This document shows positions 34,065-59,978 of a stretch of 64,000 bases of DNA, in pieces. The DNA comes from Trichoplax sp. H2 (taxonomy: Eukaryota). A program made the position numbers and the translations under genes. Each line of letters begins with the position of its first letter. The first letter of the stretch is position 1. The stretch covers positions 124,001 to 188,000 of the forward strand of contig NOWV01000103.1 in NCBI GenBank assembly GCA_003344405.1, given 5' to 3'. The notes beneath the pieces were generated by a model. The model worked only from the letters and a program-made list of their open reading frames with translations. It was not told the DNA's origin and made no database searches.

Positions 34065-37000
34065 TTACTTAGCGGCATTCGAATCAAGAGCGACGGTAAC
34101 AGTTTTCACTTCGGTGTAATGTTCCAAAGCATAGGGGCCCCTATTAAAAGAAATTTTTCTACTTAGCGCTATTAAACATCATATTTGATCAGATCGAATT
34201 TATCGTTTAAAGTATAGCTATGATCTGCAGATATTTTCCAGTGTGTAATCACATATGTAAATAAATATTAATTTACAATCTATAGTGGTAACTAGAATTA
34301 CTGTATTAGCAATATGTATAAGAGCTAACCATAGTAATATAAATTTATAGCAAAGTTAAGACAAATGATGGTGTAGATATTCTGCAGCATGTAACTACAT
34401 ACGTAATTTCAAATTTATTATTCATAATGTAGCTACGATAAATAATTAAATTAAGGATTGCATGTTTCGTGATATATGATTGTATATACGCGTACATGTG
34501 ATATATCATTGCAGATACTATTGTCTAATAAACATCTCCAATACTTCTATCTCAAGTAATAATTATGCTAAGAGCAAATACATTATATCACATTATATTT
34601 TGGATTAAAAAAATCTATATTGCGAATAGTTTACTTCCGTGTCGACAGACAATTTATACTACTTTATTTCATTGTTAATTCTTGATTTCAGGTATTGTTC
34701 TAACTTACAATTCTCTACCGATTCCAGACATTTTGTAACCACCAAATGGTGTTTGTGCAGTAACGTAGTCATACGTGTTTATCCTTAGCGAAAAAAAAGA
34801 CATTAGATTAGTTTTAAGGTAACTTTGATATATCCAGTACATAAATCTCTTAATATAAAATTAAATTGCTTGGTGTCTTACCAGACTGATCCAGCTCTTA
34901 TATGATTGGAAACATGTAATGCTCTCTTCATGTCCTTCGTATGGACTCCTGCTGCTAATCCGTATTGAGTGTCATTAGCTCTTTCGATAACTTCATCAAT
35001 GGTTGAAAACTTTAAAATTTGCATGACGGGTCCAAAGATCTATAGTAAGTAGAATATTCAATCTCGATAACAGACCTCACAAGATAATTAATTGGCTATT
35101 TGTCTACTCCTCAGACTTACTATTATACAGCTATTGAGTTAAAATAATATTGAGTCATCACTTATTAAAATACCTCTTCTCTAGCAATTCTCATATCATC
35201 TTTAACGTCAGCGAAAACGGTGGGTTCTACGAAAAAGCCTTGTGTACCAAAGCGCTTACCGCCGCATTTAAGGGTTGCCCCTTGTTCTTTTCCACTTTCA
35301 ATTAGACCCATAATTTTATTGAATTGTTCTTGATCGATCTTCAATGAATTTGGAACGAGTGGAAATTAATCGCAACACATTTATGTTATCGTTGATTATT
35401 AGAGTCTATCTGATTTAAAGTGATTACAGTAAAGTATAGAAAAAGTTATCCGTATCGTCAATGATTGTATAGTATTTCTTGTTATTTACTTAGTGTCAGT
35501 AGATATGCTGTTTAAAACGAGAATATTTTTATTGCATACCTGTGGTCCTTGTTGGACATTTGTAAATGGATCACCGACAACTCTCTTTTCGGCTAACGCT
35601 GCGCTCTTGGCTACAAATTCATCGTAGACGGTGTCTTGTACGTAGACTCGGGAGCCAGCACAGCAATTTTGACCATGGTTGGCAAATAAGCCCTCATGTG
35701 CATTTTTAACTGCTTCATCAACTATAATTGCGTATGTAATAGTTACCCAGTTAACATCGTTTTATAATAAAATAATTCTTCATTACAGTATGAGAATACG
35801 AATTGATAAAATTGTCTATTTCTTAACATACTGTCAGCGTCATCAAAAATGATATGTGGACTTTTTCCGCCTAATTCTAAGGTTACTTTCTTGAGATTAG
35901 TTTCGCCGGCAGCTGCCATAATAATTTTTCCTACTTCGGTAGAGCCAGTGAAAGCAACTTTATCAATTTCTGGATGTCTAGCAACTGCAGCACCAGCTGT
36001 AGGACCGTATCCTGGAACAACATTGACTACGCCAGGAGGGAAACCAGCCTAAATTTAAGTGAATCTAGATTAATAAATTTCATCTGTAGTATTTATCATT
36101 TTAAATGTAATTGTGGTGTCTTGATGTGATGAATATCAGTTATTACCTCGATAATTAAGCTACAGATATAAAGGACGGATAGAGGGGTTTGCTCTGCTGG
36201 TTTCATGACAATCGTATTACCGCAAGCAAGAGCTGGACCAAATTTCCATCCGGCCATTGCCATCGGATAATTCCACTAGTCAATAATTGTTAAGTTATGG
36301 CTATTTAGGGAATAGTTACCACTAGGAAATAATAGTATGTGATATTTGCAACGTTTCTGCTAACGTCATAGGATAACTTTTAATAATTAATAGTAGTAGA
36401 TTCGAAGCTATCTCTGAGAAAATAACTGTAGGAGATAATATATTCGTATGCTACGTATTAATAAAATTATCTTGCTTAGTATAGCATACATACGCGTATC
36501 AATATGAGCAGAAGGTATTAAAGTCTTTTAGTTTAATAAGTATATGGTACATTATAGCTGGATAATCCAACATCAAGTATAGTCAGCAATGGTAAATAGA
36601 CGAAACATTACATTTCAGCCTTACAGGAATGATTTGGCCGCAAACACCGATCGGCTCATGACGAGTATAACACATGAAGGCTCCATCTATGAATGATTAG
36701 GGGCAGATTTGTAGTTATGTTACGGGTTACAATAACTCAAGATAACAGATCAGACATAGTACGAATAGTTATATGAGAAATTACAAGCTAGTTAAAAAAC
36801 AGATGTATGACTTACCAATTGGAATGGTTTTACCATGAATCTTATCAGCCCATCCAGCGTAATATCTGAGGGTAATTTGCAAGTTACTCGATTGTTAAAG
36901 TATTTTTCACTATATCATGAAATACTTAATCAAAGCCTGTCGAATTGTTTTACCTTAACACATCAATAATTCCTTGACAATCTCCAAGATAAGCATCTTT

Positions 37001-37396
37001 AACTGGTTTGCCATTATCCAGTGTTTCTAACTCCTATGAGAATTTTACCAATTACGATAATAATATTTCATTGCCAAATGTAATTTGGAGTAGTAATTTC
37101 ATAGTAAGGTTATTGTTTAATCAAGCCGTTTATTATTGTATTATAACATAAGCTAGTTTGAATATTACAGGTATATGAGATACAAATACTGCATTTATCA
37201 GGAAAAAGTAAAGTCATAATCATGCAAAGAAAGTAATCGCTGGATTAAAACTTACAGCCAAGTATTTTCTGTCCCTATCGATTAGATCAGCTAATTTATT
37301 CATCAGTAATCCACGTTTTGATGCATTCATTGTTCTCCATGGACTTCCTTTCTTAAAGGCATCTTTAGCAGCTTTGACAGCGAGATCAACATCGGC
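34065..37396 (-). CDS. ALDH1/2-family aldehyde dehydrogenase, copy A1 (exon 3 to end; 5' end falls in the N gap); exons 37396-37256, 37033-36954, 36865-36816, 36686-36625, 36275-36147, 36048-35832, 35721-35540, 35338-35174, 35039-34882, 34783-34709, 34140-34065
   Basis: [58 protein letters not shown] (catalytic Glu), GQNCCAGSR (catalytic Cys), [23 protein letters not shown]. Confidence 0.92.
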
Positions 37397-57700: not shown

Positions 57701-59978
57701 AGGGATTCCAAAGACTGTTGTTTAGTATTACAGCAACAAAAGTTAACACCAAACAACGGTAAATAAGATTATATTCACGCTTGAAGACATTTCAAAGAAG
57801 ATAAATATTATGATAACGATTGATTCTATAACATCGATAGAGCCACTAGCCCTTTTCGTTAGCAATGATTAATAACGATATGCCGATAACAAATCATGAA
57901 TTACTGTGTTATCCCAGTATCGGCTGTCGAGTGCTAGGGCAAGTGCGTACATGCTATGTACTGTATAATATATTACCATTCTTTACACTACGCATGATTT
58001 AAGTTATTCCGATGAATGGATTAGGTAAATAGATAATAAATTGCATTGAAAATACTTTATGCATTACTCTTGTACTATTTGAGCTGCAATTTCATACTGT
58101 ATCGAGTCGTAAAAGTGGATTTATTACTGACTTTAATATGGTAGAAATCAGTTTATAATAACGTTATCAGGTTTAATCAACGAATTTTTGTATTTACCGC
58201 TAGGTACTGTTGATCTCTTTCCATCAATTCGGCTAATTTAGATATCAAGCGACCACGTTTTGATGCATCCATAGTTCGCCAAGTACTTCCTTTCTTGAAG
58301 GCTTGCTTGGCTGCAGCAACCGCAAGATCAATATCAGCCTATCAAAAAAGTCAATCAAAAGTTACGTATTTAAGAGTATGATTTTCTCGTAACTGAGATT
58401 ATTAATACCCAAGTAGATATTAAGTCGAAGTATTTTTATGCGCTTGGCAGTAATAATTCAATATAAATTCTGCGGACGCATGTATGAATGATGTGATTTG
58501 AATGTACTAAGCATAGTAAATTAGACGGTACATAATAATTCTCTGCATTGCGATACAATAAATACAAAAATCAAAATTGAACTACTTTCAGCTCTTAATA
58601 CGAGTACCATATAGCTGGGTCTTAGTTGTAAAAAGTTTATTTAACATTACGACCTTGACTGAATTATATTTTCATGGTGAATACCCTTCAAAACAACGAA
58701 ATCATATTCTGATGTCATGCACTACTGCAGTAGATTGAGACTTGAACAGAACACTACTAGAGGAGATTCTTACGATATAGTTGTTAAATCGAATGCATAT
58801 CAACGGGACTAAAAAAGTACATATGACCTTACAATAATGATAATGATAATCTTATTTTTAATAGCAGTTCTTTGGAGCACGCCTGAGTTGGTGTATCGTG
58901 CATATAACTTTGGGCTACTTTCATGATATACAGTAGCGTACAATCAGGGACTATTAAAGGAAGTAGTAGTCCCTGCGTACAAATACTAGTGTGTTGGATA
59001 ATAATGGATGGTAGTGCTACAATAAGTCATCCATATCCATATACTATTTAAAAGCTAAAAACTATCCGCTCTGACAGCGGGTACAAACTCTTAAGGATTT
59101 TTTTTCTACTTACTATTATTTACGGTTAATAATATTATTACTAAATAAATTTAATGTTACGTATAGTACTGTATAATTTGTTAATTCGGAGTTGGCACGC
59201 CCATATTGAACATGATGTAGTCATCTCGTACTACAGTGTCTTTAATTTCGTTTCAGATACTTTAATAACTGGGAAAAAATGGAATTAAAACTAACGTGCG
59301 AATACAATAGTTTATACCGATAGATAGCAATAAATTTCATTTATACTTTTACTGAAATATCTGATACGAAAATAATATTGCTGTACTGTAGGTCGTTACA
59401 AATGCGAAGCGGCTTAGCATCTCCACATTCAAGTTTGGCGATTTTACTACAGTAGTATGCGAACGCTTTATCATCATTCAATTATAATGAACTTAATACG
59501 CGTAGTTTATGTCTACTGATTGTAGTTTAGTAAAATAATAAATATGATACTTTAAAAAATGAGATACCTTATCGCCTTCGGCAATATCGCAAATTTTCTC
59601 TCCAGTTGCTGGGTTAAAAGTTGGAAAAGTTTTACCACTAACAGAGTCGTGCCATTCATTATTAATGAATATCTACAAAAAGCAATAACAACTGTGGAGT
59701 GAATAGATAGCCTTAATCTAACATTGTAAAAACTAGTCGAGTCCATCTAAGTGTTATTGATGCCTATCCGCTTAAATTAATAAGCCGGATGGAATAAAGA
59801 CAAGAAAAAGGTCTAGACAAGTACGGCACAAGGTCTTAGAAAAAGAAATCCTAAACAATGTTAATTGATAATATCAAACAATCTCCAATTAACTAATCAT
59901 TGACATATTATCGACTATCTTTATTGCAATTACTTTAGTGTACTTGATCTCTGGATTTGGGCTGAAAGGAGAAGCCAT
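54717..59978 (-). CDS. ALDH1/2-family aldehyde dehydrogenase, paralog D, complete, 14 exons, ~494 aa; exons 59978-59934, 59672-59568, 58338-58198, 57714-57635, 57386-57337, 57212-57151, 56888-56760, 56676-56563, 56412-56310, 56182-56001, 55759-55595, 55447-55290, 55059-54985, 54792-54717
   Basis: [51 protein letters not shown]. Exon lengths sum to 1485 nt in frame. Confidence 0.95.
58945..58975. mobile_element. 31-bp hAT-like micro-element (TIR CAGGGACTA) with an 8-bp target-site duplication
   Basis: CGTACAAT|CAGGGACTA-ttaaaggaagtag-TAGTCCCTG|CGTACAAA: a perfect 9-bp inverted repeat and a 7/8 TSD match. Confidence 0.7.

Follow-up and report, generated by a model that had tools for sequence, protein, structure and literature searches.

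Tandem aldehyde dehydrogenase 1/2 genes of Trichoplax sp. H2 differ in substrate-channel residues: a probable lineage-specific expansion

Does a cluster of aldehyde dehydrogenase (ALDH) genes in a placozoan contain an enzyme for retinoic acid synthesis, or do its divergent substrate channels serve another use? The question is raised by a stretch of 64,000 nucleotides of Trichoplax sp. H2 (contig NOWV01000103.1 of assembly GCA_003344405.1, positions 124,001 to 188,000; hereafter the window, in whose own numbering all positions are given). It holds a tandem ALDH1/2 array of four genes, all on the minus strand and in the order D, C, B, A, together with an orphan A-type first exon. Judged by its sequences, the array rather likely represents a lineage-specific tandem expansion in which changes of the substrate channel broadened the range of accepted aldehydes; that D acts as a physiological retinoic acid synthase is, on the same basis, unlikely. 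Gene D (54717..59978) and gene C (46460..51072) are intact, with 14 coding exons each and 495 and 493 amino acids, respectively. Gene B as assembled (42248..44813) consists of exons 1-3, a gap of N and the last exon, and gene A (34065..40096) is divided by another such gap. The proteins D and C are identical in 78.5% of positions and either of them in 71-73% to A/B; the value of 97% between A and B refers to composite models. Membership in the ALDH1/2 group is indicated by a full-length Aldedh domain (PF00171, 616 bits for D), and the catalytic residues C302 and E268 are present in all four models. One intron of C and D is missing from the A/B line. At 36048-35832 and 37690-37482 (minus strand) a single A/B-line exon corresponds to two exons in C and D, and a protein fragment, P0002, which matches this exon at 90%, likewise runs continuously through the intron site.

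The residues 124, 303 and 459 (mature ALDH2 numbering) form the mouth, the bottom and the neck of the substrate channel (PMC8160307; this and the other papers given by PMC number are drawn on from portions of their text). The original prediction had quoted nine motifs around these residues, and all of them occur on the minus strand of the window at the places given: ADITL (49103-49089), GQCCC (47873-47859) and CYDVF (46823-46809) in C; ADLPG (57666-57652), GQCCT (56135-56121) and CYHMT (55052-55038) in D; GDCQG (38584-38570 and again 36985-36971), GQNCC (35674-35660) and TYDYV (34776-34762) in the A-type sequence. The alignment to the three ALDH2 positions keeps its register, with no residue shifted. 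Against the human ALDH2 chain 1nzx, the L, C and F of C fall on M124, C303 and F459 and the T of D falls on C303, and against the human ALDH1A2 chain 9r6n the G, T and T of D fall on G, T and L. When all models are mapped on mammalian ALDH2, D reads G/T/T, C reads L/C/F and A/B read G/C/V with N301. The corresponding codons of D, located by motif position and alignment (for the middle pair to human ALDH2), are 57652..57654 for the mouth residue G124, 56121..56126 for the catalytic C302 together with T303, and 55038..55040 for the neck residue T459, to which H457 can be added; those of C for L124, C303 and F459 are 49091-49089, 47861-47859 and 46811-46809 (all minus strand). The tandem paralogues thus differ at three channel residues, as had been claimed, but there are four genes and not three, and the A-type triplet is a composite.

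Beyond these three positions, C and D differ at 292, 296, 457 and 458, and all of these positions are nearly fixed among the relatives that were fetched. The changes in the composite A/B pocket comprise G124, Y170, A173, E292, A296, N301 and V459. The ALDH1A signature of a small mouth residue at 124 combined with T, I or V at 303 is seen in D (G124/T303), and A/B have G124 but C303. At the neck, where ALDH1A enzymes are described to have V or L at 459 (PMC8160307), D deviates with T459 and A/B have V459. The narrow-channel combination of ALDH2, M or L at 124 with C303 and F459, occurs in C and not in B (G124/C303/V459, composite model). Among 199 fetched proteins with all three positions, a sample biased to ALDH2-like top matches and containing many near-duplicates, 155 have L/C/L or L/C/F. 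Six of the fetched proteins carry G124. Two of these are D and its orthologue in Trichoplax adhaerens; the others are one protein each from a sea urchin (G/C/V) and a rotifer, and two unnamed ones (G/T/I and G/S/I). The sea urchin G/C/V and the unnamed G/T/I proteins stand on two separate branches, both outside the placozoan clade. By its residues, C is in the ordinary invertebrate channel state and D is in a derived state of a recurring kind.

Phylogenetic relations were calculated in a quick tree of 55 rows and in a careful tree with 38 of those, 17 long-branched or redundant rows having been dropped. The four array genes come together in a single clade, with a Shimodaira-Hasegawa-like approximate likelihood ratio test (SH-aLRT) support of 99 in the former and with 99/99 in the latter tree, which bears out the proposal that the paralogues come from local duplication. 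In the 38-row tree, C and D are joined at 99/95 and the vertebrate ALDH1A rows form a clade of their own at 100/99. The grouping of D with ALDH1A, implied by the original prediction, is contradicted by the tree, which puts D sister to C; over the full length, joining D with vertebrate ALDH1A costs 87.6 log units (approximately unbiased test, p-AU 1e-14), and D was rejected as ALDH1A orthologue. Because the four genes are united in a placozoan clade and the grouping of D with ALDH1A is rejected, the resemblance of D to ALDH1A2 is, on this phylogeny, convergent. Also rejected were the groupings of A/B with ALDH1A (p 2.3e-4), of A/B with a four-row invertebrate group (p 0.005) and of C as sister of vertebrate ALDH2 alone (p 8e-46; a strict test that excludes all invertebrate ALDH2-like rows). 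All tested groupings except D with ALDH1A were named after the tree was seen. Since the base of the tree is not resolved, the array cannot, from these alignments, be filed as ALDH1A or as ALDH2. Between D and C we determined a nonsynonymous divergence (dN) of 0.135 and a synonymous divergence (dS) of 1.24, that is a dN/dS of about 0.11; dS between B and A is 0.10, and between C/D and A/B it is saturated.

The genes also differ in their N-termini. B has an extension of 26 in-frame codons (44736..44813, minus strand) in front of the Met that aligns with the start Met of A, C and D. The extension contains five Arg and no acidic residue (net charge +5), and its hydrophobic moment of 0.66 compares with 0.56-1.11 in eleven ALDH2-type leaders. 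Extensions with the same charge properties are obtained at 135 of the 127,636 codon positions of the window, and no listed RNA contig runs across the leader. In D, C and A an in-frame stop lies shortly upstream of the start codon. D, with a net charge of -1 in the first 26 residues, is predicted to be cytosolic and to have no mitochondrial leader. The 5' exons of C (51034..51234, minus strand) are a non-coding exon ending at 51181 and an exon at 51088-51034 with the start codon at 51072; they are supported by the RNA joints 51088/51181 and 49864/51031, and with the in-frame stop just upstream of the start codon no mitochondrial presequence was found on C. As C has no leader and B has a candidate one, B, which has the most changed pocket, is probably the mitochondrial enzyme. 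The hallmarks of ALDH2 are split within the array, with the narrow channel on C and the candidate leader on the wide-mouthed B. The name ‘mitochondrial’ on the database record of C is therefore probably wrong, another 5' isoform of C being possible.

We propose that one ALDH1/2 gene was duplicated in tandem within the placozoan lineage, whereby the C/D and A/B lines separated first, C and D thereafter and A and B recently; tree and dS show this order. All copies would keep the NAD-dependent thioester mechanism, for which C302 and E268 are seen here and the chemistry is established knowledge, and the residues at the substrate entry would have changed after duplication. C would have kept the common invertebrate narrow state and would act on small aldehydes in the cytosol. 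In D, with its mouth opened by G124 and the C303-F459 clamp lost to T/T, bulkier aldehydes would be accepted, also in the cytosol. The A/B pocket appears to have been rebuilt more deeply at the positions listed above, and B alone would carry a mitochondrial leader. For an algal grazer the array would probably serve to handle more kinds of aldehydes from the diet and from lipids, and D may accept retinal in vitro and yet have no part in signalling. The oxidation of farnesal was considered for the array and discarded because PMC9181382, in the text available, assigns farnesal to ALDH3 and not to ALDH1/2.

Several observations weigh against such an expansion from one placozoan gene. The ALDH1A reference consists of four partial vertebrate rows, no verified invertebrate ALDH1A is included in any of the trees, and the grouping of the whole array with ALDH1A is not rejected (p-AU 0.074). 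In score, D is nearly tied between ALDH1A2 (766.6 bits, 9r6n) and ALDH2 (765.6 bits), in contrast to C, which favours ALDH2 over ALDH1A2 by about 40 bits (761 vs 720). Synonymous change between D and C approaches saturation within the first 100 codons and the last 31, and when the first 120 columns are taken alone, the test does not reject a union of D with two ALDH1A rows (p 0.146). These points leave some room for partial gene conversion between older paralogues: C and D could be ancient ALDH2 and ALDH1A paralogues, adjacent to each other and partly homogenised, so that the tree misjoins them. Such a history would agree with the uneven synonymous divergence (saturated or 2.5 in the first two blocks of 50 codons and 0.5-1.3 in the next seven), with the survival of the ALDH1A grouping on the 120 columns, and with the near-identical A/B tracts that exist in the array. 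However, C and D are joined at 95/80 even within those 120 columns, the full-length test rejects the ALDH1A grouping at 1e-14, and at the 14 columns by which the ALDH1A and ALDH2-type consensus can be told apart, D shows no greater likeness to ALDH1A than C does (five ALDH1A and five ALDH2 states in D, four and six in C). We consider gene conversion as the source of the C/D grouping to be very doubtful. The channel differences could also be due to relaxed constraint on copies retained for dosage, with the substrate range unchanged. Three residues are a coarse predictor, and ALDH1/2 enzymes have overlapping substrate ranges. Yet C and D, at a dN/dS of about 0.11, differ at all three signature positions and at 292, 296, 457 and 458, which are nearly fixed among the fetched relatives, and relaxed constraint is a rather improbable explanation of this pattern.

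The remaining alternative leads back to retinoic acid: D could have become a retinaldehyde dehydrogenase by convergence and supply the Trichoplax RXR with (9-cis) retinoic acid, using retinal from algal or microbial food. The predicted cytosolic location of D and its G124/T303, like in ALDH1A2, are in line with such a role, and G/T/T is kept in the T. adhaerens orthologue XP_002110539, which is 99% identical. The host is, as had been supposed, a placozoan that encodes RXR: D and C agree in all shared columns (100%) with proteins whose records name Trichoplax sp. H2, and an RXR ligand-binding domain with 213 bits to RXR-alpha was found on contig C197 of the genome. Trichoplax RXR binds 9-cis-retinoic acid, and nanomolar doses affect growth (PMC5624297). 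No ALDH8A1-like locus was noticed on the seven contigs of the ALDH2-like search or on the five of the PF00171 search (13 of 77 candidate regions scored), so a competing enzyme is not evident. The nuclear receptor search (PF00104) gave nine candidates with four main receptor loci and one weak match, beyond which no RAR-like fifth receptor was found in the genome. On the other side, a search for carotenoid oxygenase (PF03055) gave no genome candidate, compared with nine for PF00104 and 77 for PF00171; this is a weak negative, as short divergent exons in an intron-rich draft can escape. Nematostella has carotenoid oxygenase genes (PMC5643517), and the supplement of that paper holds no Trichoplax entry, which does not imply that the gene is absent. 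PMC5624297 leans to a food-derived RXR ligand and never mentions ALDH, and according to PMC11311682 a fatty acid could be the physiological ligand. In the mouse, a true ALDH1A1 has a tandem duplicate, Aldh1a7, that apparently makes no retinoic acid (PMC2682703). The T459 and H457 of D differ from the vertebrate L/V and N, and a wide channel alone is no proof of retinal turnover. We doubt, on balance, that D supplies retinoic acid in this way. An independent placozoan origin of retinaldehyde dehydrogenase from a narrow-channel ancestor by the G124/T303 route of vertebrate ALDH1A2, with 9-cis-retinoic acid delivered to RXR and the mitochondrial slot taken by B, is improbable to the same degree; if true, it would mean an independent origin of retinoic acid synthesis outside bilaterians. 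For the question of the endogenous ligand of placozoan RXR (PMC5624297, PMC11311682) the array offers a short enzyme list, with C as built-in narrow-channel control for D.

A broadening of the aldehyde range after tandem duplication would have parallels in known systems. Vertebrate ALDH1A2 (RALDH2; PDB 9r6n, 6alj) shares with D the residues G124 and T303, the missing leader and the score given above, but D has T459/H457 instead of L/N and stands outside the ALDH1A clade. Mitochondrial ALDH2 and invertebrate ALDH2-like enzymes (1nzx) are matched by C in the narrow L/C/F and in its best score, and by the candidate leader of B in the charge pattern of ALDH2 presequences; unlike in these enzymes, C has the narrow channel and no leader, and B has a candidate leader on an enzyme whose pocket is rebuilt and wide-mouthed. 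Expansions of ALDH1/2 genes within single lineages, with switches of the channel, were, as a review relates, reportedly described by Sobreira et al. in 2011. Repeated switches between narrow and wide channels after ALDH1/2 duplication are reviewed in PMC8160307. Six Aldh1a genes in amphioxus (PMC3184775) and five in Platynereis (PMC5821490) are lineage-specific expansions, and the about ten Aldh1a1 copies of the beaver have differing modelled channels and an activity above that of mouse on lipid aldehydes, not on retinal (PMC8656434). In the Trichoplax array, too, duplication was followed by change at 124/303/459, and the array is a further instance of this described pattern. It differs in that the known expansions concern ALDH1A genes in RAR-bearing bilaterians, whereas the array belongs to a non-bilaterian and is seemingly its only ALDH1/2 locus. 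No description of the array was found in the literature searched; Sobreira et al. 2011 and Albalat and Canestro 2009 may include its genes.

D and C are already annotated. D, with 13 GT-AG introns and no internal stop in its 495 residues, corresponds in 494 of 494 shared columns to RDD40374.1 ‘Retinal dehydrogenase 2 [Trichoplax sp. H2]’, a name that, by the comparisons above, is due to the near-tie in similarity and not to orthology. Three RNA runs, recognised as spliced via the intron joints of C, contain 0.26, 0.26 and 0.49 of the words of the D stretch, where 0.20 is expected for spliced mRNA; this word content fits transcription of D. A single-sequence AlphaFold model of D reached a predicted local distance difference test (pLDDT) value of 35 and was set aside. 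For each of the 13 coding introns of C, one or more of the three RNA runs contain the joint. The record RDD40375.1 (‘Aldehyde dehydrogenase, mitochondrial’) equals C except for a read-through of 20 amino acids into an intron (48750-48605) that is fully spliced out in the three runs. Among the relatives, P0236 from Aurelia aurita bears the name ‘Retinol dehydrogenase 2’ and is an ALDH1/2-family enzyme with a narrow L/C/L channel and no leader.

The 3' half of the array is affected by assembly gaps. In B, the exons 44813-44688, 43772-43668 and 42693-42553 are followed by a gap of 20 N (42420..42439) and by the last exon at 42323-42248 (minus strand). The 5' part of A (37482..40096, minus strand) comprises exons 1-8 with G124 and no leader up to a second gap of 20 N (37462..37481), after which A-type exons 3-13 extend to the 3' end of A (34065..37461, minus strand). 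The exons encoding residues 292-459 are assembled once for the two genes, so that E292, A296, N301, C303 and V459 are seen in this one copy only, and G124 and Y170 also in the 5' part of A. The segment 34065..37461 is probably a collapse of A and B sequence. Because the exons with 301, 303 and 459 are assembled once, G/C/V is composite for at least one of A and B. The middle exons of B are probably those assembled at 37033-34709. The contigs at 34932, 35225 and 35968 share one RNA contig depth with those at 42159 and 42236 (129.1, 195.7 and 87.1 in the three runs). One RNA contig of 1,160 bases lies with its first 250 bases on the last exon of B; we infer that the middle A-type exons splice to this exon. 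Joints from the middle exons to the last exon of B are not among the 15 of 57 listed. In a DNA-like run, the contig depth of 117-124 over 34222-36258, compared with 64-80 on the listed contigs around C, hints at a two-copy collapse, contig depth not being equal to copy number. XP_002110540 from T. adhaerens likewise joins A-type exons to the last exon of B, and since this protein and the RNA contigs make the same connection, G/C/V is probably the triplet of B; that of A may or may not match. RNA cover of the first and last exons of A is low or missing, which we did not count as silence. XP_002110540 itself is a chimera of exons 1-2 of D, exons 3-7 of C and 3' exons of A/B, with an artificial L/C/V triplet, and would mislead surveys of channel residues. 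The orphan copy of the first coding exon of A lies at 31065..31112 (minus strand) and gives the same residues in 16/16 codons, with no further ALDH exon found after it down to 29500. It is probably a remnant of a third A-type copy left by unequal crossing-over. For the flank of the orphan exon there is a 74% match to 39939-40844, and for 32648-34236 an 84% match to 40856-42419.

When the genome was searched with a full-length animal ALDH2-like protein, 72 of 72 candidates were scored and 53 matches on seven contigs were obtained, 35 of them inside the array. No second ALDH1/2 locus was found among these matches elsewhere in the assembly, and from this search the array seems to be the sole ALDH1/2 locus of the genome; a single-exon protein search among longer proteins gave no match. 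The matches outside the array are more distant ALDHs, one of them ALDH9 by PDB search. The remaining distant loci we take, by their motifs alone, to be ALDH16, ALDH1L, ALDH4, two ALDH5, ALDH6 and ALDH7. Two adjoining genes at G000:C386:217000-224200 resemble succinate-semialdehyde dehydrogenases (presumably ALDH5, again by motifs) and form a second tandem ALDH duplication. Between D and C, at 53437-53830, short tandem repeats with a unit of about 110-150 bases are located. Downstream of the array lies a multi-exon purple acid phosphatase-like gene (23148-30479, plus strand) with a PF16656 match below cut-off. Further neighbours are a strawberry notch gene, identified by Pfam (416-4108, plus strand), and a PTC7-like (15031-16791, plus strand) and a nicalin-like gene (63034-63285, minus strand), both labelled by eye and without confirmation by Pfam. 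The human relatives of these neighbours presumably map to the chromosome regions that hold ALDH2 and the ALDH1A genes, and an old shared linkage group would be compatible with this.

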